DNA of 64,000 nucleotides from an uncultured Actinomycetota bacterium (GTDB lineage Bacteria; Actinomycetota; Actinomycetes; JAHEKZ01), in NCBI GenBank assembly GCA_963718235.1, contig CAVQYR010000002.1:608001-672000 (forward strand). Direction: 5' to 3'. The translations under genes and the position numbers were made by a program. The notes beneath the pieces are model-generated. The model was not told the origin of the DNA. It made no database searches and saw only the letters and a list, made by a program, of their open reading frames with translations. Positions 1 through 16,775 of this stretch are shown piece by piece (within the stretch, counting starts at the first letter, position 1; the number at the start of each line of letters is the position of its first letter).

Positions 1-768
1 GGCGGTGCCTTCGGGCTCGCCGTCCAGTACGGGATGCTGGGCTCGTACGGAATCAAGGCCGGACCGACGACGAGTGCGATCGCGATCAACTCGCTGTGGA
101 ACATCCTGGCCACCCTCGCGCTCCCCATGGTCGGGGCGTTGGCGCTGCTGGTCTCCGGCGACCTCACCACCCACGCCGTCGTGGTGGGCCTCCTGAGCCT
201 GCTGGTGATCGCCGTGTCCGGCGTACTCCTGTGGGTCGTCGTGCGCAGCGAGAACGGCGCACGCAAGGTCGGCGAGCTCCTGGACCGGATCGTGTCGTGG
301 GGACTGCACGTCGTCCACCGACCGCGTCAGCTGGACGTCACGACGCAGGTGCTCGACCTCAGGCACCACGTCGAAGGCGTGGTGCGTGCGCACTGGCTGG
401 TCCTGTCGATCAGCAACCTGGCGATGCAGCTCACGTCGTGGTTCGTGCTGTTCGTCGCCCTGCGGGGCATCCAGTCGGAGTCCGGGCCGCCGTACGTCAC
501 CTGGAGCGAGTCGCTGGCCGCGTTCGCGTCGGCCCGCCTGGCCAGCTTCATCCCGGTGACTCCCGGGGGCCTGGGCACGGTCGACGCGGCGCTGACGACC
601 CTGCTGGTGAACTTCGGCGCGACCAACAACCAGGCCTTGGCGGCCGACCTGGTCTGGAGGGCTGGCACCTTCATCCCCCAGGTCGTGCTCGGCGTGCTGA
701 CCTTCCTGTGGTGGCGGGTGACGTCCAAGCGGCGCAGGGCCAGGCTGGCCGCCGAGTCCGCGGGCTGA
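1..768 (+). CDS. Lysylphosphatidylglycerol synthase TM-domain (UPF0104/YbhN-like) membrane protein, 5' truncated by window
   Basis: Frame open from base 1; multiple TM helices; family motif 'FIPVTPGGLGTVDAAL' and 'AADLVWR'. Confidence 0.8.
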   Translation, partial: GGAFGLAVQYGMLGSYGIKAGPTTSAIAINSLWNILATLALPMVGALALLVSGDLTTHAVVVGLLSLLVIAVSGVLLWVVVRSENGARKVGELLDRIVSWGLHVVHRPRQLDVTTQVLDLRHHVEGVVRAHWLVLSISNLAMQLTSWFVLFVALRGIQSESGPPYVTWSESLAAFASARLASFIPVTPGGLGTVDAALTTLLVNFGATNNQALAADLVWRAGTFIPQVVLGVLTFLWWRVTSKRRRARLAAESAG

Positions 769-933
769 GCCGACCAGCGGAGCCGACCGGGCCAACCGCG
801 TCGAGCAGCAGGCCGTGGGACCAAGGGCCCGCTGCAGGCGCGGCGCACCGCGTGCGAGACTCGGTGGACCGGCTCCACCCCCGCCGCCGCTACCGGCCGT
901 CGCAACCCGGCCGCCGACCTCGTGGAGGGCTCC

Positions 934-2217
<1,284 letters not shown>

Positions 2218-2607
2218 TCAGCTGCCGAGCTCGGCATCCAGGGCTGCTCGCTCGGCATCGTTCAGCGGGCGTGAGCGCTTGGTCTGCAGGTCTCGGGCGA
2301 CCAGCACGCACTCGCCTTGTGCGGCAATGGTCCCGTCGCGTTTGAGCACGGTCTCCTTGGTGCGCACGCTCGACGTTCCGTAGCCGACCAGCTCGCTGCG
2401 CACGGTGATCTCGCCGTCGTCCTGAGTGACCTCGTCGCGGAAGTCGATCGCGACCCGAGCGATGACGATGTCGTAGGCGGAGTCGCCGAACAGCTGCACG
2501 CTCAGCTGGTCGCGTGCCTCTTCCAGGTAGTTCAGGTAGACCGCGTTGTTGACGTGCCCATAGGCGTCCATGTCGGCCCAGCGCACCCGGATGCGTACCT
2601 CGACCAT
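2218..2607 (-). CDS. Acyl-CoA thioesterase (4HBT/YbgC hotdog family)
   Basis: 'VRWADMDAYGHVNNAVYLNYLEEAR' signature; TACCGT -10-like box 6 nt upstream of ATG 2607. Confidence 0.9.
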   Translation of the reverse strand: MVEVRIRVRWADMDAYGHVNNAVYLNYLEEARDQLSVQLFGDSAYDIVIARVAIDFRDEVTQDDGEITVRSELVGYGTSSVRTKETVLKRDGTIAAQGECVLVARDLQTKRSRPLNDAERAALDAELGS

Positions 2608-2827
2608 GGCGACACGGTATCGCTGGCGGTGGGGTGGGCCGTGCGGCCCGGCTCGGGCAGCGACGCGACCGGGGCGAGTGGAACCTCCCGGGCGGCTCCG
2701 GTTCCGCTGAGCCAGTGAGTAGGAGAGCTGTCGGACCTGAACCTCCCCCCCCCTGCGCCAACGCGCCGCACCAGCCGCAAGCGACTCGTCCGACTCGGCC
2801 GCAGCGTGAGTGGGTAGCGTCGTCGGC

Positions 2828-4039
2828 ATGCGGCTGCTGCACACGTCCGACTGGCATCTCGGGCGTACCCTGCACAACGAGTCGTTGCTCGACGCCCAGC
2901 GGGGTGCTCTCGGCCAGATCGTCGACCTCGTCGACACCCACGACGTCGACGCGGTGCTCGTCTCCGGCGACGTCTTCGACCGAGCGGTCCCCCCGGTCGA
3001 GGCGGTGACGATGCTGGCCGAGACCCTGCACCAGCTCACCGCGCGCGTGCCCGTGGTGGTGATCTCGGGCAACCACGACTCCGCGGTGCGGCTGGGCTTC
3101 GGTGCTGACCTGTTCGCCCACCCCCTGCACGTGCGTACCCGCGCCGACCAGGTCGGCCGACCGGTCGAGCTCGCCAACGAGCACGGCCCAGTGCTGATCT
3201 ACCCGATCCCCTTCCTCGACCCCGATGCCGCCCGGTACGTCCTGGCTGACGGCGACGAACCACTGGAGCGCAGTCACGACGCGGTGCTCCGGGCGGCCAT
3301 GCGCCGGGTCACGACCGACCTGCAGCAGCGAACGAACGAGTCGGGCGACTCGGTCCGCAGCGTGGTGATGGCTCACGCCTTCGTGGTCGCGGGCCCGTCC
3401 CTCGACGACGAGCAGACCCGCAGTGACAGTGAGCGCGACATCCGGGTCGGTGGCACCGACAGCGTCTCCTCGAGCCTGTTCGCCGGCGTCGACTACGTCG
3501 CTCTGGGGCATCTGCACGCGCCACAGCAGCCGCGGTCGCCTGAGCAGGGCGGACGCAAGAGCATCCTCCGCTACTCGGGATCGCCGTTGCGGTACTCCTT
3601 CTCCGAGGCGACGCACACCAAGTCGGTCACTCTGGTCGATCTCGACTCGTCCGGTGTGACGGCCATCACCGCCGTCCCTCTGGCCCAGCCGCGTGAGATG
3701 GCCGTTCTGGTCGGCGCCTTCGACGACCTGCTCGACCCGGATCGCCATGTCGGTCTGACACAGGCGTGGGCCCAGCTGACCGTCACCGACCCGGCCCGTC
3801 CCGAGCAGATGGTGCCCCGGCTGCGCGAGCGGTTCCCGCATGCCCTCGTCGTGCGGCACCAGCCCGCGTCAGGCCCGCTGCTCACCAGTGGGGGCGGGTC
3901 CGGAGTCGAGGCTCTCGACCCCTTGGAGGTCGTCGAGTCCTTCGTCCAGTACGTGACCGGCGCTGACGCGAGCCCCGACGAACTCAGGGTCTTCGCCTCG
4001 GCCTACGAGTCCGTGAACGCGGCCGAGCGGAGCGCTTGA
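2828..4039 (+). CDS. sbcD: Exonuclease SbcCD subunit D (Mre11-like)
   Basis: MRLLHTSDWHLG, GDVFD, SGNHDS, ALGHLH, RYSGSPLRYSFSE metallophosphoesterase motifs. Confidence 0.95.
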   Translation: MRLLHTSDWHLGRTLHNESLLDAQRGALGQIVDLVDTHDVDAVLVSGDVFDRAVPPVEAVTMLAETLHQLTARVPVVVISGNHDSAVRLGFGADLFAHPLHVRTRADQVGRPVELANEHGPVLIYPIPFLDPDAARYVLADGDEPLERSHDAVLRAAMRRVTTDLQQRTNESGDSVRSVVMAHAFVVAGPSLDDEQTRSDSERDIRVGGTDSVSSSLFAGVDYVALGHLHAPQQPRSPEQGGRKSILRYSGSPLRYSFSEATHTKSVTLVDLDSSGVTAITAVPLAQPREMAVLVGAFDDLLDPDRHVGLTQAWAQLTVTDPARPEQMVPRLRERFPHALVVRHQPASGPLLTSGGGSGVEALDPLEVVESFVQYVTGADASPDELRVFASAYESVNAAERSA

Positions 4040-7035
4040 TGCGGCTCCATCGGCTCACGCTGCGTGCGGTCGGGCCGTTCGCCGGGCAGTACTCCGTCGA
4101 CTTCGACCGACTGGGATCGTCCGGGCTCTTCCTGCTGGAGGGGCCGACCGGGGCCGGCAAGTCGAGCATCATCGACGCCGTCGTCTTCGCGCTGTACGGC
4201 AAGGTCGCCGGGCACGACGCCAGCGACGACCGGATGCACTCCGACTTCGCCGAGCCGAACGTCGAGCCCTTCGTCGAGCTCGACTTCAGCACCTCGTCGG
4301 GGCTCTACCGGGTGCGCCGGACCCCGAAGTACGAGCGACCGAAGGTGCGTGGCACCGGGACCGCCACCCAGAACGCCACGGCCAGGCTGTGGCGGTTGGC
4401 CAGCCCCGACTCCGAGACCGGCGAGCCGCTGACGACCCGGATCGAGGAGACCGCCACCGCCGTCCTCGACGCGGTCGGGCTGAGCCGTGACCAGTTCGTG
4501 CAGACGGTGGTGCTGCCACAGGGTGAGTTCGCGTCGTTCCTGCGTGCGCCGGCCGAGAGCCGGCGCGCCATGCTGCAGCGGCTGTTCGGCACCGAGGTCT
4601 ACGACAAGGTCGTCCGCCGTCTGGAGGAGATGCGCCGGTCGGCCCACGAGGCGCGGCGGGAGTCCGACGTCCGGGTACGGGAGGCGGTGGCCGCATTCGG
4701 CGGAGCGGCGGGGCTGGAGCCCGACGACGCGTCCGCACTGATGGCGAGGGTCGACGACCTGGACGATGCCGACACACAGGTGGCCGCGGGGCGGGCGGTT
4801 ATCGAGCGGCTCGAGGGTGAGTCCACGCTGCTGGCTGAGCTCCGATCCGAGGCGCTTCGCACCGCGCAGCAGCGGGCGACCGAGCTCCACCAGGCGCGTG
4901 ACCGGGAGGAGCGGCGCCAGCGCAAGGAGACGCTCGTGTCCAGGGCCGACGAGCTCGCGACCACACGCGACGCGCAGCAGACGCTGCGCCGGCGCCTCGA
5001 CCTGGCCGAGCGGGCTGAACGGGTCAGGGCGGTGCTCGACGGTCTGCGCAGCTGCGAGCGACGACTCGCCGTGGTGGAGCAGCGCATCGAACGGGCCACC
5101 CGGGTGCTCCCCGAGCACCTCCGTGATGCCGCACCCGCCCGATGGTCGCTCGAGGCGCGCCAGCTGCGAGACGACGCCGCACAGCTCGCCGACCGGGTCG
5201 ACGACGAGGAGTCGCTGCCGCTGCGGCGCCAGGAGACGATCCTGGCCCGGTCGGCCGCAGACGAGCTGCACGAGCTGCTCGCGCAGGCCACGGCGACAGC
5301 AGCTGCACTGCCCGAGCAGGTCGAGCAGCTGCGGCTCCAGCGCGACGAGGTCGTGCGGCGCATCGCCGGCGCCGACTCGGCGACTGCTGGCCTCCGGGTC
5401 GCTGCCGCGCAGCACGCCGCCGCACAACGCGTCGACGACCTGACCGTGTCCCTGACCACTGCAGCGACTCGGGCCGAGCGCGCCGCCGAGAGCGCACGAG
5501 CGGCGCAGGAGCACGAGAACGACCTGCGCCAACGACACATCGCCGGCATGGCTGGGGCACTGGCCGCTGGTCTGGCCAGGGACCAGCCGTGCCCGGTGTG
5601 CGGGTCCTTGGAGCACCCGCGCCCGGCCCGTCGTCAACCGGGCGACGTCGACGCGGCCGAGGTCGACGCCGCGGAGCAGGTGCGGCGAGCATCGCTCGAG
5701 GCGCTCGAGGCGGCGTCCTCGACCGTGGCGCAGCTGCGGGCCGAGCTCGCCTCGGCGAGGGCCGAGTCCGGCGGCCTTGCCGCCGCCGCCGCCGCCGCGG
5801 CGGTCGTGGCAGCCGAACGGAGAGTGGGCGACGTGTCAGCCGCGCAGATCGACCGCGACCGGATCGAGACCGCGCTCGCTGCCCTCGAGGTACGCCGTGC
5901 TGAGCTCGCCGAGGCGTCGGTCTTGCTGACGTCGCAGTCGACGGCCGCGGCCACGAGGGCCTCCGCCCTGGAGGAAGCCCTCGATGTGCTCGAGGGCCTG
6001 CTGCTCGCGGCCCGTGGCCCGCACGAGTCGGTGGCTGCCCGCGTGACCTCGATGCTTCGGGCCGCCGAGCGGCTGGAGGCGGCCGAGGCTGCGGCCCATG
6101 AGCTGCAGGCCGTTCGCGACGAACGAGCCGGGTGGGCCGACAAGCTCGCCCAGGCGTGCCGTGAGCAGGGCTTCGCCGACAGCACAGCCGTCGACGAGGC
6201 GTTGGTCTGCGACGACGAACGCCACGTGTGGGCGTCGGAGGTGGCCCGGTACGACAACGACGTGGCAGCCGTGTCAGCCGCGTTGGCCGACCCGTCGCTG
6301 GGCTCGGTCGACGTCGATGCCGTCATCGACCTGTCACCCCTGGTCGAAGCCGACCTCGCCGCCAGCGATCGTGCCCGGCGAGCCGAGGGCCGGGCAGCGT
6401 CCCTCGAGCAGCGGCTGAGGACGACCCGCGCCGCGTTCGACTCCTGGCGGTCGACCCTGGCCGACCGTTCGAGGCAGCTCACCGACACAGCCACCGTCAT
6501 CCGCACCGCCAACCTGATGGCCGCGGCGACCAGTGACAACGCGCGGGCGATGACGCTGCCGACCTACGTGCTGCTCGAGCGGTTCAGGGCGGTCGTGGCC
6601 GCCGCCAACGAGCGGCTGTCCCAGATGAGCGACGGTCGGTACGCACTCGAGCACAAGGAGGAGCGCGACGCGGGGCGCCGCTCGGGCCTTGGGCTCGTCG
6701 TCCGGGACACCCTCACCGAGCAGTCCCGCGCCCCCGGGACTCTGTCGGGCGGAGAGACCTTCTACTGCTCGTTGGCCCTGGCCCTCGGCCTGGCCGACGT
6801 CGTGACGGCGGAGGCTGGCGGGATCGACCTCGGGACTCTCTTCGTCGACGAGGGGTTCGGCATGCTCGACCCCGACACACTGGAGCAGGTCCTCGGCGTG
6901 CTCGGTGGCCTGCGGTCCGGCGGCCGAGTGGTCGGGATCGTCAGCCACGTTCCCGAGCTGAACGAGCGGATCAGCGAACGGGTCGTGGTCCGCCGCAAGG
7001 CCGACGGCTCGAGCCGGCTGGAGGTCGTCGCGTGA
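4039..7035 (+). CDS. sbcC: Exonuclease SbcCD subunit C (Rad50-like SMC ATPase)
   Basis: Walker A GPTGAGKS, Q-loop LPQGEF, zinc hook CPVCGS, signature LSGGE, Walker B LFVDEGFG, H-loop VSHV; ATG overlaps the sbcD stop. Confidence 0.95.
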   Translation: MRLHRLTLRAVGPFAGQYSVDFDRLGSSGLFLLEGPTGAGKSSIIDAVVFALYGKVAGHDASDDRMHSDFAEPNVEPFVELDFSTSSGLYRVRRTPKYERPKVRGTGTATQNATARLWRLASPDSETGEPLTTRIEETATAVLDAVGLSRDQFVQTVVLPQGEFASFLRAPAESRRAMLQRLFGTEVYDKVVRRLEEMRRSAHEARRESDVRVREAVAAFGGAAGLEPDDASALMARVDDLDDADTQVAAGRAVIERLEGESTLLAELRSEALRTAQQRATELHQARDREERRQRKETLVSRADELATTRDAQQTLRRRLDLAERAERVRAVLDGLRSCERRLAVVEQRIERATRVLPEHLRDAAPARWSLEARQLRDDAAQLADRVDDEESLPLRRQETILARSAADELHELLAQATATAAALPEQVEQLRLQRDEVVRRIAGADSATAGLRVAAAQHAAAQRVDDLTVSLTTAATRAERAAESARAAQEHENDLRQRHIAGMAGALAAGLARDQPCPVCGSLEHPRPARRQPGDVDAAEVDAAEQVRRASLEALEAASSTVAQLRAELASARAESGGLAAAAAAAAVVAAERRVGDVSAAQIDRDRIETALAALEVRRAELAEASVLLTSQSTAAATRASALEEALDVLEGLLLAARGPHESVAARVTSMLRAAERLEAAEAAAHELQAVRDERAGWADKLAQACREQGFADSTAVDEALVCDDERHVWASEVARYDNDVAAVSAALADPSLGSVDVDAVIDLSPLVEADLAASDRARRAEGRAASLEQRLRTTRAAFDSWRSTLADRSRQLTDTATVIRTANLMAAATSDNARAMTLPTYVLLERFRAVVAAANERLSQMSDGRYALEHKEERDAGRRSGLGLVVRDTLTEQSRAPGTLSGGETFYCSLALALGLADVVTAEAGGIDLGTLFVDEGFGMLDPDTLEQVLGVLGGLRSGGRVVGIVSHVPELNERISERVVVRRKADGSSRLEVVA

Positions 7036-7799
7036 GCCGACCGCTCGCCCCACCGCCCACGCTGCGCGCCACCCTCGATGGCCCCGAACGACAGCTGATC
7101 CAGGCGGTCGTCGGTCCGGCCGACGACGACCTGCTCCGTCCGCTGCGTGATGCCCGCGGGCGGGAGTTCCAGCGGCTGGAGTTCCTGGGCGACTCGGTGC
7201 TCGACCTGGTCCTCGCGGTGCACGCGTGCGCCGAGCCCACGTGCCCGTCGTGTCGACGGGTCGACGGGCACGTCACCCGGCTGGTCACCGACGTGCAGCT
7301 CGGTCGCCGGGCGCGGTCCCGGGGGCTCGGCGACTGGCTGGAGTGGCAGGCCTCCGACGAGCGCCTGGCCGACCTGGTCGAGGCATGCGTCGCGGTGGCG
7401 TTCGTGGCCGGTTCGTGGGCGCGGGCCTGTGCCTGCACCGCTTCCCTCGTCCATCCGCTGGGTCCGGCGACGACCCGGACGCTGGAGCAGGGATGGGTCG
7501 GGCCCGACACCCCCACACCGGTCCGCGCAACGGGCTCGGCGCTGCTCGAGCTCGCTGCCGGACAGACCGTCTTCGTGCAGCACCCTGACGCCGACGAAGG
7601 GGAGCTCTCCCGCCGCCGAGCCGAGCTGCACCAGGCGAGCCGGGTCGCCCATCGTGCCCGGCGGCGCCATCTCGTCGATGAGCACGGTGCCGATGCGGGG
7701 GTGAGCGACCGGGTCGAGGTGCTGCTGGCTGACCGCCTACTGAGCGCCGGCGCCGACGCGGCCCTGCAGGACGCGGTATCCGTCCTCGTCGACGAATGA
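7032..7799 (+). CDS. RNase III-domain protein with two tandem RNase III-like domains and no dsRBD
   Basis: Signature QRLEFLGDSVLDL and LADLVEA in the first half; degenerate second copy (ATGSALLEL...HPDADEGELSRRRAEL...VSDRVE). GTGA overlap with the sbcC stop. Confidence 0.75.
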   Translation: MSRPLAPPPTLRATLDGPERQLIQAVVGPADDDLLRPLRDARGREFQRLEFLGDSVLDLVLAVHACAEPTCPSCRRVDGHVTRLVTDVQLGRRARSRGLGDWLEWQASDERLADLVEACVAVAFVAGSWARACACTASLVHPLGPATTRTLEQGWVGPDTPTPVRATGSALLELAAGQTVFVQHPDADEGELSRRRAELHQASRVAHRARRRHLVDEHGADAGVSDRVEVLLADRLLSAGADAALQDAVSVLVDE

Positions 7800-8042
7800 C
7801 AGGGGAGCGACCAGTGACACCGTGCGGCTCGCCGCGTGCCGTTCTGCCGGGCTTCGCGACGACGTGAGCACCGCAGTCAGGGCTGCAGCGACGACCACGC
7901 CGCTCACGAGAGGCACGATGCCGGGGGCGCCGAGAAGGATGAGCAGCAGTCCGGCCGTCACGCCCGACGTGGCACCGACGAGCACACGCGTCGTCACCGG
8001 ACCCGGGGAAGCGGCCGCGGGGAAGTGCGGCTGTCGAGACAT
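7737..8042 (-). CDS. Small hypothetical membrane protein (two hydrophobic segments)
   Basis: 'VTAGLLLILLGAPGIVPLVSGVVVAAALTAVL'; fills an otherwise empty gap; overlaps the convergent gene by 63 nt. Confidence 0.4.
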   Translation of the reverse strand: MSRQPHFPAAASPGPVTTRVLVGATSGVTAGLLLILLGAPGIVPLVSGVVVAAALTAVLTSSRSPAERHAASRTVSLVAPLSFVDEDGYRVLQGRVGAGAQ

Positions 8043-8126
8043 GGAGGACAGCGTGGCCAAGAACGGGCCCTTTCCGACGTTGCGACACGCAGGTGCCCGT
8101 CCCGCGGGACGTGGCAGGCTGGGGTG

Positions 8127-9023
8127 GTGACCGACCTGATGCGGGACTTGGCAGTCGATGACGGGCGCCGCCTCGACGTCCTCGTCGGGGGTGCTGCCAC
8201 CGGGCCGGTGGTCGTGCTGCACCACGGCACCCCGTCGGACGCGACGTGCTGGGCGGACTGGCACGAGGACGCCGTTCGCCGCGGCGTCCGGATCGTCTCG
8301 GTGAGCCGGCCTGGGTACGCCACCTCCACCCGGCTGCCGGGACGCCACGTGGCCCAGGCCGCCGACGACGTCGCCGCTGTGCTCGACGCGCTCGGCGTCG
8401 ACGAGTACGTGACGGCCGGCTGGTCCGGGGGAGGCCCGCACGCGCTCGCGTGCGCAGCGCTGCACGGCGGTCGCTGCCTGGGGGCCGCGACGCTGGCCGG
8501 TGTAGCGCCGTACGGCGTCCCGGGGCTGGACTTCCTCGACGGAATGGGTCCGGAGAACGTCGCCGAGTTCGGGGCGAGCCTGCGGGGTGAGCCGGACCTG
8601 CGGGCCTGGCTCGCCGAGCACGGGGAGCCCTTCCGGCACGTCACCGGTGCCGAGCTGGCCGACGCCTTCGGGGGGCTCGTGCCCGCCATCGACAAGCAGG
8701 TCCTGCAAGGGGGCTACGCCGACCACATGGCGGCCGAGACGCGCCGGGCACTGAGCGGCGGGTTCGACGGCTGGGTCGACGACGACCTCGCCTTCGTCCG
8801 CCCCTGGGGTTTCGACCTGGACCAGGTCACCGTCCCGGTCACGGTCTGGCAGGGCGATCTCGACCTCATGGTCCCCCCGGCGCACGGAGCCTGGCTGGTC
8901 GACCACGTCCCGGGTGCGCAGGCGCGTAGGCCGAGCGGGCACGGACACATCTCGCTGGTCACCGAGCACCGGGGTGAGATCCTGGACTGGCTGCTGGCCC
9001 AGCCGGCGGCGAAGGCGCGCTGA
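8127..9023 (+). CDS. Alpha/beta fold hydrolase
   Basis: HHGTP oxyanion motif, RPGY, nucleophile elbow GWSGGG, WQGDLD, GHGHIS. Start could be 8124, 8127 or 8139. Confidence 0.88.
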   Translation: MTDLMRDLAVDDGRRLDVLVGGAATGPVVVLHHGTPSDATCWADWHEDAVRRGVRIVSVSRPGYATSTRLPGRHVAQAADDVAAVLDALGVDEYVTAGWSGGGPHALACAALHGGRCLGAATLAGVAPYGVPGLDFLDGMGPENVAEFGASLRGEPDLRAWLAEHGEPFRHVTGAELADAFGGLVPAIDKQVLQGGYADHMAAETRRALSGGFDGWVDDDLAFVRPWGFDLDQVTVPVTVWQGDLDLMVPPAHGAWLVDHVPGAQARRPSGHGHISLVTEHRGEILDWLLAQPAAKAR

Positions 9024-9027
9024 GCCG

Positions 9028-9735
9028 GTGAGCGAGCTGGTGTACCCGCCGGTGATGGGGGCGTTGCGCGCGGCGTTCGTCGGGCTCGGGCTGAAGCTGC
9101 AGGTGCACGGCGGCGAGAACGTCCCGCGCGTTGGCGGCGCCGTGCTGGCGAGCAACCACGTGAGCCACCTCGACTTCGTGTTCGTCGGGCTCGGCGGGCG
9201 GCCGTCGAAGCGACTGGTCCGGTTCATGGCCAAGAAGGCGGTGTTCGACCACCCGGTGGCCGGGCCGCTGATGCGCGGCATGAAGCACATCCCGGTCGAC
9301 CGAGAGGCCGGCGCGTCCAGCTACGCCGAGGCGCTGCGGATGCTGCGGGCCGGTGAGGTGATCGGGGTCTTCCCCGAGGCCACCATCAGCCGCAGCTTCC
9401 AGCCCAAGGAGTTCAAGACCGGAGCCGTGCGCCTCGCCAGGGCCACGCGCACGCCGCTGGTCCCCGTGGCCGTGTGGGGCACCCAGCGGTTGTGGACCTA
9501 CGACGAACGGTCCAGCCTGCGGCAGCGCGGGGTGCCGATCGCGGTGTGGGTCGGCGAGCCCGTCGATGCGACCGGCGACCAGCACGAGGCGACCGCTCGG
9601 CTGCGCCACGCGGTGCGTGGTCTGCTCGACCAGGCGCGCGCCGACTACCCCGACGACGGCGCAGGAGCCTGGTGGCAGCCGGCCGACCTCGGTGGTTCCG
9701 CACCCACCCCCGCGACGTTCGGCGACGACGCCTGA
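9028..9735 (+). CDS. 1-acyl-sn-glycerol-3-phosphate acyltransferase (PlsC family)
   Basis: NHVSHLD (HX4D), FMAK, VFPEATIS motifs. Confidence 0.9.
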   Translation: MSELVYPPVMGALRAAFVGLGLKLQVHGGENVPRVGGAVLASNHVSHLDFVFVGLGGRPSKRLVRFMAKKAVFDHPVAGPLMRGMKHIPVDREAGASSYAEALRMLRAGEVIGVFPEATISRSFQPKEFKTGAVRLARATRTPLVPVAVWGTQRLWTYDERSSLRQRGVPIAVWVGEPVDATGDQHEATARLRHAVRGLLDQARADYPDDGAGAWWQPADLGGSAPTPATFGDDA

Positions 9736-9756
9736 CCGGCTCGATCCGGACCAGGG

Positions 9757-10212
9757 TCAGCCGGTACCTGCGGCGGCCTGGTCACCGGCCAGGCAGCGGG
9801 CCCACGCGCCGCGAGTCGGCGCATCGAGCACCTCCGGGCGGGTCAGCAGCCAGCGCAGGAGGTGGTCGCCGGGCAGGAACGCGATGCCGAACTCGGTGGA
9901 CTCGCCGTGGCCGCCGTCGACCGGGAGCACCCCCACGCTGTGCGGCCAGACCCGGTCGTGCGTGGCCACCAGGAGCCGGTCGCTGAGCATCCGGGCGGTC
10001 GAGTGGATCGAGCGGATCCGGTCGTCGGGTGTGCTGGGTGTTTCCGCCACCGGGTGCAGGGCGAACAGCCCCCCTGGGCCGAGAGCGACGCAGTAGTCCT
10101 CGTGCTGCTCGACGAACGGCCAGGCCGACCGGGGCAGCTTGCCGACGACCCAGCTCACCAGGTCGTCTGGCCCGTCGACCCAGCGCCGAACCATGCCGCC
10201 GATCATGATCAC
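9757..10212 (-). CDS. Hypothetical protein, degenerate NERD-like fold
   Basis: 'DYCVALGPGGLFAL' and 'LLRWLLTRPEVL' resemble actinobacterial NERD proteins; the catalytic ExK is missing. Confidence 0.45.
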   Translation of the reverse strand: MIMIGGMVRRWVDGPDDLVSWVVGKLPRSAWPFVEQHEDYCVALGPGGLFALHPVAETPSTPDDRIRSIHSTARMLSDRLLVATHDRVWPHSVGVLPVDGGHGESTEFGIAFLPGDHLLRWLLTRPEVLDAPTRGAWARCLAGDQAAAGTG

Positions 10213-10294
10213 CCCGATGTCTCGTCCGTCGTCCGGTTCATCGGCCGGGTGACGGCGGGACTTCAGTGTTCGGCGCGGGCGTAGGTGCCGTGGG

Positions 10295-11254
10295 TCATTC
10301 GTCCGTTTTGCGGCTTTCGGTCATCGGGAGACCCAGGTGCTCGTCCTTGTAGGCGCGGGCGTCCTCCAGCGGCTCCAGGTGCGTGTGCACCTCGGCGTCC
10401 GGGAGTGCCGTGCACACGGCGGACTCGAGGTCCTCGAGCAGGTCGTGACCCTGCTGCACCGACCAGGCCCCGGGGACCAGCACGTGGACCGAGACGAACC
10501 GATGGTGGCCCGACTCCCGGGTCTGCAGGGCGTGGAACTGCACGTCGTCACGGCGGAACCGGTCCAGCACCCCCAGGATGAGGGCGTGGTCCTCGGCGGG
10601 CAGCGCATGGTCCATCAGGCCGGCGGTGGACCTGAGCACGAGCCGGGTGCCCATCACCAGGATGTTGAGCGCCACGACGATGGCGACGACCGGGTCGAGC
10701 CGCTCCCAGCCGGTGACGGCCACGAGGCCGACGGCGACGATCACGCCCACCGACGTCCATACGTCGGTGAGGAGGTGGTGGCCGTCGGCCTCCAGGGTGA
10801 TCGACCGGTGCTGGCGCCCCACGCGCAGCAGCAGCACCCCGACCACGCCGTTGATCACCGTGGCCACGGCCGAGATCGCCAGTCCCAGCCCGACCGACTC
10901 CAGAGGCTTCGGGTTGATCAGCCGCTCGACCGCGCTGGCCATGATCACCGCGGCGGCCACGAAGATCATGAGCCCTTCGATCCACGCCGAGAAGTACTCC
11001 GCCTTGCCGTGTCCGAAGTGGTGGTTGTGGTCCGCCGGCATCGCCGCCACCCGCAGCGCCACCAGCGCGACGACGGCGGCCACCAGGTTCACCACCGACT
11101 CCGCTGCGTCGGACAGCAGACCCACCGACCCGGTGACCACGAAGGCCCCCGTCTTCAGGGTGATCGTGGCCAGGGCCGCCGCGATCGACAGCCAGGCGTA
11201 CTTCGTGAGCGACGGCCGTCCTTCGACGACTGGTGAAGGGCTGGCGTCGGTCAC
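10295..11254 (-). CDS. Cation diffusion facilitator family transporter
   Basis: GSVGLLSDAAES, HHFGHGKAEY, ADGHHLLTDVWTS, C-terminal HTHLEP dimerisation domain. Confidence 0.92.
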   Translation of the reverse strand: MTDASPSPVVEGRPSLTKYAWLSIAAALATITLKTGAFVVTGSVGLLSDAAESVVNLVAAVVALVALRVAAMPADHNHHFGHGKAEYFSAWIEGLMIFVAAAVIMASAVERLINPKPLESVGLGLAISAVATVINGVVGVLLLRVGRQHRSITLEADGHHLLTDVWTSVGVIVAVGLVAVTGWERLDPVVAIVVALNILVMGTRLVLRSTAGLMDHALPAEDHALILGVLDRFRRDDVQFHALQTRESGHHRFVSVHVLVPGAWSVQQGHDLLEDLESAVCTALPDAEVHTHLEPLEDARAYKDEHLGLPMTESRKTDE

Positions 11255-11303
11255 GCCCCCAGCCTGCCAGGTGCCGGAGCGCAGGGCGGCTGCGTGCGGC
11301 TCG

Positions 11304-12215
11304 TCACGGCTCGCCGAGACGGGCCCGCGACTGGTCGTAGATGCGCTGGAGCACCGGGTCGGGGGAGTGGCCCAGGCGGCGCTGGGACCGGTAGGCCTCC
11401 GCGGCGGCCGTGCGTGCGTCGAGCGCCTGCTCGACCCGCTCGGAGTGGTCGGGGTGGTCGGTGAGCAGGAACGACGGGACAGCCTCGGCGAAGCGGACCA
11501 CGACCTCTGCCGCCCGGGCGGCCCGGGCCGGCTCGGAGACGTGCGGCTCCCGGTAGGGCCACCAGAGGTGGACGGCGTCACCGGCGAGGGTGAGGGCTGC
11601 CCCCTGCGGGACCCGGTCGAGGACGACCGCCATGACATGGGGGGCCAGGACGTCTGCGGCGAACCTCAGGTCGGCAGCGTGCACCGTGTGCTGGGCATCG
11701 AAGTCGACCGACTCGGTCGCCCAGCCGGTACCCGGATCGTCCAGGCCGCGCTCGGACCGGGGGAGCACGGCCATGGCCGGGAGCCAGGCGCCGCTGAGCC
11801 GGGTCAGTGCGCCGGCCCACCGGGGTCGCGCCCCGGCCACGGCGTCGTCGAGGGCTGAGCTGGCCGTGCCCCACGCGCTCTCGATCGCGGCGCCGAGCAG
11901 GTCGCTGACCGGGTCGCCGCCGAGTCCGAACGACCCGGCGCCCGGTTCGTCGGAGGTCGACAGATCGGGGTCACGGGCGGTCACGGCGAGGACGCCGTAG
12001 GCGGGTCGGGCCATAGGCTGGTCAGCCAGACCGCTCCACTGGAGCAGGCGTCCGGAGCCCTTGCCGTCACCGAGGCGCCAGGGGTGCAGGCGGGGGAGGA
12101 CCGACACGGTCCGGTTCATCGCGCCCAGCAGCCACAGCTCGGTGAGCGGGTCGACGGCGTCCCAGGCGCCGTCCCAGCTGGGAGCCGGCTCAGGCGGGGT
12201 CCGGGCGTGGGTCAC
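11304..12215 (-). CDS. Hypothetical protein (actinobacterial, DUF3137-like segment)
   Basis: 'ESVDFDAQHTVHAADLRFAADVLAPHVM' resembles a recurrent actinobacterial motif; GTGA overlap with the upstream gene. Confidence 0.55.
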   Translation of the reverse strand: MTHARTPPEPAPSWDGAWDAVDPLTELWLLGAMNRTVSVLPRLHPWRLGDGKGSGRLLQWSGLADQPMARPAYGVLAVTARDPDLSTSDEPGAGSFGLGGDPVSDLLGAAIESAWGTASSALDDAVAGARPRWAGALTRLSGAWLPAMAVLPRSERGLDDPGTGWATESVDFDAQHTVHAADLRFAADVLAPHVMAVVLDRVPQGAALTLAGDAVHLWWPYREPHVSEPARAARAAEVVVRFAEAVPSFLLTDHPDHSERVEQALDARTAAAEAYRSQRRLGHSPDPVLQRIYDQSRARLGEP

Positions 12216-12556
12216 CCGGAGGTTGTCGGCAGGTCCGAGGGTGCGGCTGAGCGATGACGGGTGGCTGCGTACGACACGGCCCCGGTCACGGCGGCGACGG
12301 TGACTACCGACGGCCAGGCCCCGATCTGCCGGGCCAGCGGGTGCGAGACCACGAACGCGGCGGCGTAGGTTGCGCCCAGCGCCACAGCGGTGGCCGGTCC
12401 GTGACCAAGCCACCAGCGTCGGATGCACCAGGTGCCGCCCGCGAGCAGGACGACTCCGCCGGCCGCGCGGACCTCGGTGACCGCTGCGACGCCGTAGCCG
12501 ACGACCAGCGAACCTGCGGCCACACTCGCCGTCGTCGCTGCTGAGGGAGTGGACAC
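12212..12556 (-). CDS. Small hypothetical membrane protein
   Basis: About four TM segments; 'FVVSHPLARQIGAWPSV'; starts 4 nt after the mmuM stop. Confidence 0.65.
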   Translation of the reverse strand: MSTPSAATTASVAAGSLVVGYGVAAVTEVRAAGGVVLLAGGTWCIRRWWLGHGPATAVALGATYAAAFVVSHPLARQIGAWPSVVTVAAVTGAVSYAATRHRSAAPSDLPTTSG

Positions 12557-12560
12557 GGGC

Positions 12561-13490
12561 TCAGGCCAGCGCGTGGACGGCGGCAGCGACCCGTTCGATG
12601 TCCTGCGGCCCGACTCGACAGCAGCCGCCGACCAGCCGGGCACCGTCGTCGAGCCACTGGGTGACCGCCTCGGGGTCGAGACCACCGCGGCCGACCCAGC
12701 AGCGCTCCTCGGCGTCCCACTGCTCGCCGGAGTTGGGGTAGACGACCACCGCCTTGCCCGACCCCGTGCGCGCAGGGGCGACGGCGGCACCGGCGTCACC
12801 CGGCGTCGAGCAGTTCACCCCGACCGCGACGAGAGCGGGGACGTCGTGGGCCATCGCCCAGACCTCCTTCAGCGGCTCGCCGCTGCGCAGCCTGGCTCCG
12901 TCGACCGACACCGACAGCCACGCCGCGGCGCCGAGCCGGTCGACCTCTTCCAGCAGCGCCTCGACCTCGGCCAGCTGGGGGATCGTCTCCAGAGCGAGCA
13001 CGTCGGCCCCGGCGTCGAGCAGCACCTCGAGCCGTGGGCGGTGGAACGCGCGCAGCGTCTTCACCGGGACCCGGTAGTCGCCGCTGTACTCCTCGCCACC
13101 GGCGAGCATCGCCCCGTACGGGCCGACCGAGCCGGCGACGAACCGGTCCCGGCTGTCGGCTGTGGCGGCCTCCTGCTGCTCGCGGGCCTGCTGGGCCAGC
13201 GCGACGCTTCGGCGCAGCAGCCGGGTGGTCTCGTCGCCGGTCAGCCCGGCCCGGGCGAACCCTTCGTAGGTGGCCTGGTAGCTGGCCGTCGTGGCGACCT
13301 CGGCCCCCGCCGCGAAGAACGTGCGGTGCGCCTCGACGATCGCCTCCGGGTCGTCGCGCAGCAGGCGCGCGGACCACAGGGCGCTGCTCAGGTCGTGTCC
13401 CTGGGACTCCAGCTGCGTGGCCAACCCGCCATCGAGAACCACCGGCCGTTGGGCCATCACGTCAGCCAGGGTTGCGGTTGGATGGCTCAC
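12561..13490 (-). CDS. mmuM: Homocysteine S-methyltransferase
   Basis: VLDGGLATQLE, LWSARLL, AGSVGPYGA, GVNC, YPNSGE, VGGCCRVGP zinc-ligand motifs. Confidence 0.93.
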   Translation of the reverse strand: MSHPTATLADVMAQRPVVLDGGLATQLESQGHDLSSALWSARLLRDDPEAIVEAHRTFFAAGAEVATTASYQATYEGFARAGLTGDETTRLLRRSVALAQQAREQQEAATADSRDRFVAGSVGPYGAMLAGGEEYSGDYRVPVKTLRAFHRPRLEVLLDAGADVLALETIPQLAEVEALLEEVDRLGAAAWLSVSVDGARLRSGEPLKEVWAMAHDVPALVAVGVNCSTPGDAGAAVAPARTGSGKAVVVYPNSGEQWDAEERCWVGRGGLDPEAVTQWLDDGARLVGGCCRVGPQDIERVAAAVHALA

Positions 13491-13522
13491 GTCGTCGATT
13501 CTTGCACCGACCGGAGGACCCC

Positions 13523-15181
13523 ATGACCGCCCCCGACCTCATCTTCGTCAACGGCCAGGTGTTCGTCGGTGACGGGCGGCCACCTCGGCGGGCCGCGGTT
13601 GCGGTCACCGGGGGTCGGATCAGCGCGGTCGGCAGCGACCAGGAGGTTGGCGACCTCCGCGGGTCGGGGACCACCGTCGTCGACCTCGGTGGCTCACTGC
13701 TCACCCCTGGCTTCCACGACGCGCACATCCATCCGGTCTACGCCGGCGCGCAGATGATCCAGTGCGACCTGCACGGGATCGTCACCCAGGACGAGTCGGT
13801 GGCTGCGGTGGCCGCATTCGCCGCGTCGCACCCGGAGGCGGAGTGGGTGCTGGGCGGGGGCTGGTCGATGGAGGCCTTCCCGGGCGGGCTCCCGACCCGG
13901 CAGATGCTGGACGCCGTCGTCCCCGACCGCCCGGTGTTCCTGCCGAACCGCGACGGCCACGGAGGCTGGGTCAACAGCGAGGCGCTGCGTCGGGCCGGCA
14001 TCACCAAGGACACTGCGGACCCGGCCGACGGGCGGATCGAGCGCGACGCCGACGGTGAGCCGCTCGGCACCCTGCAGGAGGGTGCGATGGCGATGGTCAG
14101 CCACCTCGTCCCGTCGCTGTCGGCCGCTGACTACGACCGGGCCTTCGACGCCGCCCAGGCCTACCTCCTGTCGCTCGGCATCACCGGGTGGCAGGACGCC
14201 ATCGTGGGCGAGGTCAACGGGCGTCCGGACAACCTCGAGGCCTACCTGCGGGCGGACTCCGACGGCCGGCTGAAGGCCCGGGTCGTCGGTGCTCTGTGGT
14301 GGGACCGTGAGCGGGGCGCTGAACAGATCCCGGAGCTGCTCGAGCGGCGGGCGGCGGGGATGGGCCAGCGCTTCCGGGCCACGAGCGTGAAGATCATGCA
14401 GGACGGCGTCGCCGAGAACTTCACCGCCGCGATGATCGAGCCGTACCTCGACACCTGCGGGTGCACGTCGTCCAACGCGGGGATCAGCTTCGTCGAGGCG
14501 AAGGCTCTGAAGTCGTACGTGACCGCGCTGGACGCCGAGGGCTTCCAGGTGCACTTCCACGCCCTGGGGGACCGGGCGGTGCGTGAGGCGCTGGACGCGC
14601 TCGAGGCCGCGAGAGACACCAACGGCCCCAACGACCACCGGCACCACCTGGCCCACATCCAGGTGGTCCACCCCGACGACGTCCCCCGGTTCGCCCGGCT
14701 CGACGCCCTGGCCAACATGCAGCCTCTGTGGGCCGCCCACGAGCCGCAGATGGACGAGCTGACCATCCCGTACCTCGGGGAGCCCCGCTGGCGCCACCAG
14801 TACCCCTTCGGTGACCTCGAGCGGGCCGGGGCCCGACTCGTGGGCGGCAGCGACTGGTCGGTCAGCAGCCCCGACGTGATGTGGGGGTCACACGTCGCGG
14901 TCAACCGGGTCGCACCTCCGGAGGAGGGTGACGAGGGTGGCGAGGTCGACCCGTTCCTGCCGGAGCAGCGGCTGTCGCTGGCGAGCACGTTGACCGCGTA
15001 CACCGCGGGCAGCGCCTTCGCCAACCACCTGGACGACGTCGTCGGCACGATCGAGCCGGGCAAGTGTGCGGACCTCGTCGTGCTCGACGCCGACCCGTTC
15101 GCCGGACCGGCCCTGGACATCCACGCCGCCCGGGTACGCGCGACCTACATCGACGGCGAGCCGGTCTACGTCTCGAGCTGA
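13523..15181 (+). CDS. Amidohydrolase (YtcJ-like, Amidohydro_3)
   Basis: PGFHDAHIH, DGHGGWVNS, KIMQDG, HFHALGDRA, GGSDWSVS, GTIEPGKCADLVVLD; GGAGG RBS. Confidence 0.9.
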   Translation: MTAPDLIFVNGQVFVGDGRPPRRAAVAVTGGRISAVGSDQEVGDLRGSGTTVVDLGGSLLTPGFHDAHIHPVYAGAQMIQCDLHGIVTQDESVAAVAAFAASHPEAEWVLGGGWSMEAFPGGLPTRQMLDAVVPDRPVFLPNRDGHGGWVNSEALRRAGITKDTADPADGRIERDADGEPLGTLQEGAMAMVSHLVPSLSAADYDRAFDAAQAYLLSLGITGWQDAIVGEVNGRPDNLEAYLRADSDGRLKARVVGALWWDRERGAEQIPELLERRAAGMGQRFRATSVKIMQDGVAENFTAAMIEPYLDTCGCTSSNAGISFVEAKALKSYVTALDAEGFQVHFHALGDRAVREALDALEAARDTNGPNDHRHHLAHIQVVHPDDVPRFARLDALANMQPLWAAHEPQMDELTIPYLGEPRWRHQYPFGDLERAGARLVGGSDWSVSSPDVMWGSHVAVNRVAPPEEGDEGGEVDPFLPEQRLSLASTLTAYTAGSAFANHLDDVVGTIEPGKCADLVVLDADPFAGPALDIHAARVRATYIDGEPVYVSS

Positions 15182-15194
15182 CGCCGAGGCCCCA

Positions 15195-16775
15195 CTACGA
15201 CGCGGAGGGTGCTTCCTCCTCCGCCGCGTGCACGGCGACGGCACCGCGGTCGCGGCGGGTCGGTGCGCCGAGCACGAAGAAGAGCGCGCCGAGGGCCACG
15301 AAGACGAGCAGCGGGATCGCCTCGGTGAAGAAGTAGCTCCACTTCTCGCTCGCCAGCCAGTCGTCGGGTCGGAAGTCGTCACCGAACCACGCGACGCCGA
15401 AGCCTGGAGCCACCAGCTGGATCGAGGCGAAGACCACCAGCAGGGTCAGCCAGACCGACAGGAAGGGGGCCCAGGGGGCGCGGAACGAGCGTGGGTGGTC
15501 GGGGAACTTCACCCGCAGCCGCCACAGGGCCGGGAACACCCCGATGTAGGAGATCAGGGTGGTCGACACGGCGATGCCGAGGATCGCGCCGAAGTACTTC
15601 GCGGCGTTTCCGTTGCTGATCTCGTGGACCATGATCAGCACCACCGTCGACAGCACACCGGACAGCACGTTCACCCGCACCGGGGTTCCGAACCGCGGGC
15701 TGAACCGGCCGAGGTAGCGCGGCGCCGCACCGTCGTAGCCCGACACGGCCAGCGCCCGGTCTGAGCCCATGATCCAGGTCGTGCCGGACGAGAGCGCGCA
15801 CAGGATGAACAGGATCGCGGCGAAGTCGCCGAGCACAGCACCGGCACCGGTCAACGTCGCGGTTCCGTCACTGGCGATGTCGCCGCCGTAGATCGTGAAC
15901 ACCGACTTGATGGCGTCGATGAAGCCACCGAGGTTGGTGACCTGGTCGACGGGCAGGACCACCAGGATGCCGAGGACGGGGACGCCGTAGAGCAGGATCG
16001 CCACGATCGCGGACCGAAGGATCGAGTAGGGGACGTCCTTCTGCGAGTCCTTCATCTCGTCGCCGGCGGTGTTCGGCAGCTCGAAGCCGACCAGGCTGAA
16101 CATGATCAGGCCGATCAGCGCGACAAACCCGGCGTAGGAGATCTTGAAGTCGCCCGGGTGCACGCCGTTCACACCGTTCTGGATGGCGAAGATGATCACC
16201 GAGATCGTGAAGAAGCCCAGGAGCAGGAAACGGGCGAAGGCGCCGGAGATGGGGATCCACTTACCGACGGAGAACGACAGGATGGCCGAGAAGGTACCGA
16301 CCCAGATGAACACGAGCCCGAACAGGTAGAAGGCCCAGGTCGGCAGCGTGCCCCCGTCGTTGAAGAAGATCTCGTAGGTGGCGATCGACAGGGTGGCCAG
16401 CGTGCCGCCGAACCAGACCGGGTTGGTGATCCAGTAGAGGAAGTTGTTGACGGCGCCGACGAACCGCCCGAACGCGAGCCGTGCCCACAGGTACGGGCCG
16501 CCTTCTTCGGGGAATGCTGTGCCGAGCTCGGCGAACAACAGGCCGCTGGGGATGAAGAAGACGACACCGAGGATGAGCAGCCAGCTGAAGGCCTCGGCCC
16601 CGGAGGCGGCGATGGCGCCGATCGAGTCGACGCCGACCAGGGTGCAGATCGTGAACAGCAGGATCTCGCGGCGGCCGAAGTGGCGTTGGAGGTGACTGGT
16701 CTCCTCGACGGCATCGCTGGTGAGGTCGAGCTCACGGACCTCGGCGACGGTCGGGATGTGGGGGGCTTCACTCAT
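15195..16775 (-). CDS. APC family amino acid/polyamine permease
   Basis: About 12 TM helices; AELGTAFPEEGGPYLW, GFELPNTAGDEMKD. Confidence 0.9.
   Translation of the reverse strand: MSEAPHIPTVAEVRELDLTSDAVEETSHLQRHFGRREILLFTICTLVGVDSIGAIAASGAEAFSWLLILGVVFFIPSGLLFAELGTAFPEEGGPYLWARLAFGRFVGAVNNFLYWITNPVWFGGTLATLSIATYEIFFNDGGTLPTWAFYLFGLVFIWVGTFSAILSFSVGKWIPISGAFARFLLLGFFTISVIIFAIQNGVNGVHPGDFKISYAGFVALIGLIMFSLVGFELPNTAGDEMKDSQKDVPYSILRSAIVAILLYGVPVLGILVVLPVDQVTNLGGFIDAIKSVFTIYGGDIASDGTATLTGAGAVLGDFAAILFILCALSSGTTWIMGSDRALAVSGYDGAAPRYLGRFSPRFGTPVRVNVLSGVLSTVVLIMVHEISNGNAAKYFGAILGIAVSTTLISYIGVFPALWRLRVKFPDHPRSFRAPWAPFLSVWLTLLVVFASIQLVAPGFGVAWFGDDFRPDDWLASEKWSYFFTEAIPLLVFVALGALFFVLGAPTRRDRGAVAVHAAEEEAPSAS

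Follow-up and report, generated by a model that had tools for sequence, protein, structure and literature searches.

A probable single-chain RNase III pseudo-dimer with one active site, encoded beside sbcDC in an uncultured actinobacterial lineage

On the forward strand of a 64,000-nucleotide stretch of contig CAVQYR010000002.1 (assembly GCA_963718235.1, an uncultured Actinomycetota bacterium; positions 608,001 to 672,000, hereafter the window), a gene for a tandem RNase III-like protein directly follows the genes sbcD and sbcC (Table 1). Its GTG start at 7032 overlaps the TGA stop of sbcC (7033-7035) as GTGA, and a GGAGG Shine-Dalgarno sequence lies 7 nt 5' of the start, within sbcC (7020-7024). 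An earlier reading, made by a model from the letters and their open reading frames (ORFs) and referred to here as the sequence-only reading, had given the position and 255-residue length of this frame exactly, and every peptide that it quoted is present: in the first half QRLEFLGDSVLDL from nucleotide 7170 (residue Q47), LVTDVQLGRRARSRGLGDWL at residues 84-103 and LADLVEA at residues 112-118, and in the second half VRATGSALLELAAG, HPDADEGELSRRRAEL and VSDRVEVLL. A promoter and terminator scan of positions 2300-8400 returned no signal, and a search of window positions 1-16000 against Rfam returned no family or structured RNA beside the tandem gene.

Table 1. Features of the tandem RNase III locus, in window coordinates.
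Feature	Position	Strand	Remarks and basis
sbcD (Mre11-type nuclease)	2810..4039	+	Pfam Metallophos and SbcD_C; likely true start 2828
sbcC (Rad50-type ATPase, 999 aa, CPVCG zinc hook), upstream neighbour to which the tandem gene is translationally coupled	4036..7035	+	Pfam AAA_23 and SbcC_Walker_B
Translation start region (GGAGG, GTG and overlapping TGA)	7020..7035	+	read from sequence
Tandem RNase III-like ORF, stop included	7032..7799	+	255 aa, GTG start
Domain A, catalytically intact RNase III domain, ~residues 30-145	7119..7466	+	PF00636, A-half profile, conservation
RNase III signature QRLEFLGDSVLDL (E50, D54)	7170..7208	+	sequence, conservation, Drosha alignment
Candidate metal ligands H64 (7221-7223), C71 (7242-7244), C74 (7251-7253), H141 (7452-7454)	7221..7454	+	conservation
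LADLVEA motif (D114, E117)	7365..7385	+	conservation, Drosha alignment
Domain B, degenerate RNase III domain, ~residues 160-255	7509..7796	+	B-half profile, dN/dS, AF2 model
Degenerate signature VRATGSALLEL (E position = R165, D position = S169)	7521..7553	+	conservation
D188-E189-G190, P..DEG.LS motif of RNase III, domain B only	7593..7601	+	conservation
SDRVE, what is left in domain B of the second catalytic motif (D226, E229)	7704..7718	+	conservation

The protein is made up of two RNase III-related halves, termed domain A (N-terminal) and domain B (C-terminal). Searched as a whole against Pfam, the 255 residues matched PF00636 (E 6e-13, 49.9 bits, cut-off 27) and PF14622 (1.9e-10, 41.4 bits, cut-off 35), each in two stretches. 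The N half taken alone still scored 31.6 bits with PF00636, above its cut-off, and an N-half profile compared with the PDB matched Drosha (3e-15) and E. coli RNase III (7.2e-9), the alignment pairing QRLEFLGDS and LADLVEA with QRMEFLGDS and LADLLES of Drosha domain IIIb. A profile built from 18 C halves matched solved RNase III structures at 1.3e-9 to 2e-8, including Drosha (1.3e-9) and the enzymes of C. jejuni (8.8e-9, profile positions 15-103 of 107), M. tuberculosis (1e-8) and E. coli (1e-8). When the two halves were aligned to each other with hhalign, a weak similarity was found (E 0.0085 over 85 colinear columns), which would fit an ancient duplication and proves nothing. The double-stranded RNA-binding domain (dsRBD) profile dsrm (PF00035) had no match in the protein at E up to 1, and the Pfam scan yielded no PAZ, helicase, dsRBD, zinc-finger or other further domain. 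Residues 220-254 (7689-7796) did give a match to Ntox34 (bacterial toxin 34) at 20.2-21.4 bits; it falls below the cut-off of 25 and was rejected as probably a chance likeness of helical segments.

AlphaFold2 (AF2), supplied with a 25-sequence alignment, returned an all-helical model with a mean predicted local distance difference test (pLDDT) of 95.5 and a predicted template modelling score (pTM) of 0.93. Two helical domains occupy all 255 residues, and domain B is all-helical with a pLDDT of at least 94 over most of its length. A Foldseek comparison of the whole chain with the PDB placed Drosha, DCL1, Dicer and DCL3 best, over 280-390 columns with TM scores normalised to the query (TMq) of 0.59-0.66 and E-values down to 2.2e-5 (9asn at E 2.2e-5, 6lxe at TMq 0.65, 7vg2 at TMq 0.66), while bacterial RNase III monomers aligned over only 122-144 columns (TMq 0.33-0.40), covering half of the model. 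The mitoribosomal RNase III-like protein 6ywe_9 was also among the matches. In a viral fold library, giant-virus RNase III proteins matched weakly (best E 3e-3) and no phage relative was found. Because a whole-chain TM score above 0.5 requires both halves to be superposed at once, the model is that of an RNase III-type pseudo-dimer, in which halves A and B are predicted to pack against each other within one chain. The sequence-only reading had proposed just such a protein, a single chain with two RNase III folds, the first intact and the second degenerate, and no dsRBD, and the proposal holds up: the C half both models and profile-matches as an RNase III domain paired with the N half, and the intramolecular dimer is what AF2 predicts.

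Conservation of the active site was assessed in an alignment of all 108 homologues recovered from a 5.8-billion-protein search (206-291 residues, median 255). Within domain A, no homologue departs from E50, D54, D87, R111, D114 or E117 (108 of 108 at each position). A review of the enzyme family describes Aquifex RNase III as binding its two catalytic Mg2+ ions through E40, D44, D107 and E110 (PMC3867540); domain A has equivalents of all four of these carboxylates. The corresponding positions of domain B have drifted. Position 169, that of the signature D, is occupied by A in 56 homologues, S in 52 and D in none, and position 165, that of the signature E, by R in 80, E in 14 and other residues in 14. 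In the second catalytic motif, position 226 is D in 60 sequences, S in 38, N in 8 and something else in 2, and position 229 is E in 91, D in 10 and Q in 6, with one gap. The full set of four carboxylates is never present in domain B among the 108, and more distant homologues read RLALLGD...ADSVQA there (E to A, E to Q). Both halves of the prior claim about catalysis, four intact carboxylates in domain A and loss of the signature E and D in domain B, are thus confirmed, the latter as R165 and S169 in the window; across the family the signature D of domain B is always missing and the signature E usually.

Domain B has kept one RNase III element that domain A lacks. Its DEG triplet is conserved at D188 (104/108), E189 (104/108) and G190 (105/108) and aligns with EG(x)L, a motif shared by Drosha and Dicer-like proteins; the equivalent place in domain A holds an EP.C..C insert. 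In E. coli numbering the RNase III residues are E38, E41, D45, E65, D114 and E117, and the DEG glutamate of one subunit may line the active site of the partner subunit. In domain A, H64 and H141 are conserved in 106 of 108 homologues each and C71 and C74 in 102 each. The pattern of a His, at least two Cys and a further His recurs in 102 of 108 sequences, and all four residues are jointly absent from two of the 108 and from three of four distant type-3 homologues. This conservation would fit a candidate structural His2Cys2 metal site in domain A, which looks to have replaced the usual P..DEG.L segment.

The tandem gene is not the housekeeping rnc, as the sequence-only reading had also held. The genome encodes a separate rnc (G000:C2:777188-777826) that scores 233.8 bits with NCBIfam TIGR02191, above the cut-off of 166.25, against 41.5 bits by hmmscan (~20 bits per stretch) for the tandem protein. 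Nor is it an ordinary rnc in decay, since homologues form a conserved family of ~255 residues and both halves are under purifying selection. Ratios of nonsynonymous to synonymous substitution (dN/dS; Nei-Gojobori) were calculated for the 14 most similar pairs in a set of 13 sequences from the order; they were 0.10-0.27 for half A and, in 13 pairs, 0.09-0.25 for half B, dS being saturated in one pair; several dS values exceed 1, so these ratios are rough. One copy is C-terminally shortened: that of genome G004 (L071 / L092:8973-9653) has 227 residues, its match ending at profile position 223 of 259, and in that genome, for which no SbcC was detected, the gene may be decaying.

The family is small and is confined to a few, mostly uncultured, Actinomycetota lineages. 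Of the 20 genomes of its own order, 18 carry the gene. Across 401 genomes sampled from the class, 67 genomes gave a match at E <= 1e-8, of which only 23 had full-length family members, namely those 18 plus G345, G181, G247, G217 and G169; the remaining matches were ordinary rnc genes at ~35-43 bits, including one in the unpublished genome G050, which supports no conclusion here. The order to which G345 belongs carries the family in 20 of 151 genomes (f58, 19/33; f57, 1/1), and it was not found there in f52 (0/32), f54 (0/32), f60 (0/32) or f49 (0/16). A library of 1.84 billion representatives contained 34 clusters at E <= 1e-30 and 182 at E <= 1e-10. Homologues are named 'dsRNA-specific ribonuclease', 'ribonuclease III domain-containing protein' or 'hypothetical protein' in their source records and come from metagenome-assembled genomes (MAGs) of Actinomycetes and Nanopelagicales and from Geodermatophilus pulveris; the ESM Atlas holds an actinobacterial cluster, with 96 members, labelled 'RNase III domain-containing'. 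The sequencing runs listed as sharing words with the DNA were all metagenomic DNA runs (word shares of 0.36 or less), with no RNA run among them. A contig scan with the family-alignment patterns LEFLGDSVLD and ADLVEACVA proved too generic, its 51 confirmed loci being ordinary rnc genes of unrelated phyla. Neither the tandem protein nor two distant homologues matched a defence family in PADLOC-DB at E up to 0.001.

The association with sbcC extends beyond the window. Of the 18 genomes in the order that have the tandem gene, 16 have sbcC directly upstream of it, the two exceptions being G003 and G004, and the 4-nt GTGA overlap recurs in 10 of the 12 relatives for which the region from sbcDC to the tandem gene was fetched. 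The adjoining sbcC is the only copy in the genome, and its zinc-hook cysteines C519 and C522 (CPVCG) are invariant among aligned relatives. One genome of the order, G001, has neither the tandem gene nor SbcC. Farther afield, G345 and G181 possess sbcC at a distance from the tandem gene. The coupling to SbcCD is therefore real in this lineage and is neither universal nor obligatory. Co-translation with SbcCD suggests, and does not establish, a role alongside DNA-end processing. Complex prediction with SbcD 1-345, SbcC 1-195, SbcC 800-999 and the tandem protein, that is without the SbcC coiled coil and hook, scored 0.00 twice and weighs neither way.

Other clades place the gene in other company. 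In genus g160 the order is MaoC, tandem gene, SSB-family gene, ABC-F in 10 of 10 loci (L093-L102, and L086:9920-10522), with the ABC-F gene seen in all nine loci whose flank is long enough; the SSB-like and ABC-F genes may be a separate pair with conserved synteny in actinobacteria, mycobacteria included. Genera g125 and g110 share the order NlpC/P60, tandem gene, SDR (7 loci), and in G169 the gene stands beside CarD and a type III polyketide synthase.

Some details of the flanking genes were recorded along the way. In relatives, SbcD starts at MRLLHTSDWHLG. This beginning aligns with residue 7 of the ORF in the window, which makes 2828 the probable true start of sbcD; for sbcC, the alignment suggests a start one codon later, at 4039. 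Downstream of the tandem gene lie an alpha/beta hydrolase gene and then a PlsC-type acyltransferase gene. The hydrolase gene (7836-9023) is absent from this place in most relatives, where the acyltransferase comes directly next, and is inverted in L065; the first ~100 codons of its listed ORF look non-coding, and the real start is probably further downstream. In three relatives (L114 of G018, L115 of G017 and L117 of G015) sbcC is in two to three pieces in different frames with 6-26 stops, next to an intact sbcD and an intact tandem gene; these are either pseudogenes or indel errors in few-contig assemblies. Genome G014 (contigs C15 and C3; L068 and L073) shows two near-identical junctions of sbcC and the tandem gene, both located at the ends of contigs; duplication in the assembly or a strain variant is the probable cause.

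A sister family of ~500-residue proteins (P0143, P0163, P0155 and P0268-P0275; 10 aligned), one of them from an Acidimicrobiales MAG according to NCBI, has the same combination of a live domain A (E31, D35, D96 and E99 in 10/10) and a dead domain B. In addition these proteins carry an insert of ~100 residues after domain A and a C-terminal extension of ~110 residues. In an AF2 model of moderate confidence (pLDDT 74, pTM 0.58) both extras have a beta-beta-beta-alpha-beta-alpha-beta topology, and Foldseek matched them to the N-terminal RNase H domain of M. tuberculosis Rv2228c (3hst_B, 120 columns, root-mean-square deviation 3.6, E 1.5e-3) and to HIV-1 reverse transcriptase. The predicted folds resemble RNase HI, and the insert has invariant D140, E178, E199 and D242 among the 10 aligned sequences. 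Pfam found no RNase H in a sister-family sequence, and the family was found in none of 401 genomes sampled across the phylum, in a search run without a positive control.

Taken together, these results make it probable that the window encodes a minimal single-chain RNase III pseudo-dimer with one active site, likely nicking one strand of an RNA-containing duplex. The N-terminal domain alone carries the four carboxylates that would hold two Mg2+ ions, and the C-terminal domain would be a conserved, catalytically dead partner completing the substrate-binding valley, such that the product would be a single-strand nick in an RNA-containing double helix instead of the staggered double cut of ordinary RNase III. 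Because one domain is live and the other dead, a single-strand cut is the most likely outcome, and the activity is most likely that of a Mg2+-dependent, single-site nicking endonuclease. The suggestion of the sequence-only reading that one active centre could nick a strand of double-stranded RNA (dsRNA) or of a hybrid appears reasonable on the precedent of engineered heterodimers and of the KREN/KREPB proteins described below. As to substrate, the SbcCD and SSB-like contexts (two of three) and the sister family hint tentatively at a DNA-associated nucleic acid, perhaps an RNA:DNA hybrid.

Several observations weigh against this interpretation. The C half of this particular protein, searched alone, scores 22 bits with PF00636, under the 27-bit cut-off. 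The chain lacks a dsRBD and any other module that could be recognised as RNA-binding, and substrate binding may need a partner. The intramolecular pairing is based on one AF2 model and Foldseek scores. As regards context, G003 and G004, which belong to the same family and are 88 and 90% complete, keep the tandem gene, and no SbcC was found anywhere in them; the neighbourhood differs between clades; and in G181 the stop of the tandem gene overlaps the start of the SDR gene, so a start/stop overlap with a neighbour is not specific to sbcC.

A more specific version of the same explanation, which names both substrate and partner, would make the protein an accessory nuclease of SbcCD that acts at DNA ends, hairpins or stalled forks and there nicks or removes the RNA of R-loops or RNA:DNA hybrids. 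We regard this as possible, though doubtful. It would account for the GTGA overlap with a Shine-Dalgarno sequence inside sbcC, for the adjacency and the overlap in most genomes of the order (16/18 and 10/12), for the proximity to the only sbcC of the genome, for the joint absence from G001, for an SSB-family gene directly downstream in 10 of 10 g160 loci and for RNase HI-like folds with an invariant D/E/E/D set in the sister family. It sits less well with the distant sbcC of G345 and G181 and with the two genomes that keep the gene without an SbcC being found; moreover, a gene order shared inside a single order of bacteria may reflect common descent and not function, the SSB-like gene of g160 may belong to a pair of its own with ABC-F, and the RNase H-like fold comes from a pLDDT 74 model without Pfam support. 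The still stronger proposal that the protein is the RNA-cutting arm of SbcCD (Mre11/Rad50), nicking hybrid or R-loop RNA at breaks, hairpins and stalled forks, and that Acidimicrobiales relatives fused RNase HI-like domains for the same purpose, is speculative and decidedly improbable. Persistence of the gene without SbcC in G003 and G004, together with neighbours that vary between clades, would be easier to understand if the protein instead processed a stable RNA at a specific site, unrelated to SbcCD, whether in maturation of ribosomal or transfer RNA in the manner of Mini-III or on one mRNA/antisense duplex. Mini-III is a dsRBD-less bacterial RNase III and a site-specific ribosomal RNA maturase (PMC3867540). 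Such a role is unlikely, as an enzyme for a core maturation step should occur more widely than in 23 of 401 genomes, and no Rfam family or structured RNA was seen beside the gene.

Two further alternatives concern the architecture itself. Two chains could pair domain A with domain A' into a canonical two-site centre, leaving domain B as an accessory or substrate-binding module in the dsRBD's stead: the RNase III domains of canonical bacterial enzymes form homodimers, domain B comes after A in the place that the dsRBD takes in rnc, and the arrangement is compatible with a higher-order assembly. AF2, however, sets B against A (pTM 0.93), the whole chain fits IIIa/IIIb pairs better than monomers (TMq 0.59-0.66 vs 0.33-0.40), and domain B, having an RNase III fold itself, is a natural partner for A, all of which renders A-A' pairing very unlikely. 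Finally, the protein might be a non-catalytic RNA-binding or scaffold protein, like RNC1 and the RNase III-like proteins of mitoribosomes, or else a duplicated rnc in decay. The existence of tandem, catalytically silent RNase III domains in RNC1, as described in the review (PMC3867540), the appearance of 6ywe_9 among the fold matches and the shortened copy of G004 lend themselves to this idea, but the four domain A carboxylates in 108 of 108 homologues, a dN/dS of ~0.1-0.27 on both halves and a conserved family of ~255 residues with an intact rnc elsewhere in the genome leave it scarcely credible. The preferred reading is thus that of a one-site pseudo-dimer formed within a single chain.

If borne out, this pseudo-dimer-only bacterial family with one dead site would be the smallest natural model of the catalytic core of Dicer and Drosha. 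It would also be a natural single-strand duplex nickase, an activity not known hitherto outside engineered E. coli heterodimers and the trypanosome editosome, and a possible tool enzyme. A functional coupling to SbcCD would tie RNA cleavage to the processing of DNA ends in bacteria, and were the protein truly an arm of SbcCD, it would parallel, in a prokaryote, the part that tandem RNase III enzymes take in eukaryotic break repair. In a family this small and lineage-limited, the biology would be specialised and not universal. In the full-text literature, a scope outside which most subscription journals and supplements fall, neither a bacterial single-chain tandem RNase III nor an RNase III gene coupled to sbcCD was found described.

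The protein belongs to the RNase III superfamily and stands outside Rnc, Mini-III and the Dicer/Drosha class proper. With canonical Rnc (TIGR02191) domain A has in common the fold and the four-carboxylate, two-metal site, whereas Rnc is a homodimer of chains with one RNase III domain and a dsRBD each and has two active sites; the tandem protein departs from it in both TIGR02191 score and the dsRBD. Mini-III of Bacillus subtilis is likewise a bacterial RNase III family without a dsRBD, according to the review (PMC3867540), but it is a single-domain (~140 residues) homodimer with two active sites, in place of a tandem with one. Chloroplast RNC1 provides an instance, in the same review, of tandem RNase III domains outside the Dicer/Drosha class (PMC3867540), yet both of its domains are catalytically silent, whereas domain A here is intact. 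A single-chain layout with two RNase III domains has hitherto been described mainly in eukaryotes, and the part of the review consulted places tandem pseudo-dimers there (Drosha, Dicer, RNC1) and assigns homodimeric Rnc and Mini-III to bacteria (PMC3867540).

In overall architecture the closest resemblance is to Drosha and Dicer, which also join two RNase III domains in one chain as a pseudo-dimer and are the best whole-chain structural matches, Giardia Dicer being a minimal form of the IIIa-IIIb pair. At the sequence level, domain A is like IIIb and domain B like IIIa of plant Dicer-like proteins. The two types stand in the opposite order here, with domain B C-terminal; the duplication was probably independent of that in Drosha and Dicer. 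In those enzymes both domains are active, while the tandem protein would have one active domain and is a bacterial protein of 255 residues without PAZ, helicase or dsRBD. In mode of action, the likeness is to pairs with a single functional site. Engineered E. coli RNase III heterodimers of this kind nick dsRNA, according to the review (PMC3867540). In the trypanosome editosome, KREN1-3 and KREPB6-8 pair one competent with one non-catalytic RNase III domain, as here, and each pair is described as having one catalytic site which, in the published model, cuts one strand of a duplex (PMC9508840). The KREN and KREPB proteins are separate polypeptides with zinc fingers and other motifs that belong to a large mitochondrial complex, whereas the actinobacterial protein is a single short chain without such modules. 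By analogy, they are nonetheless the systems that it is most like, as the closest functional analogue in mode of action and not as fellow members of one family.

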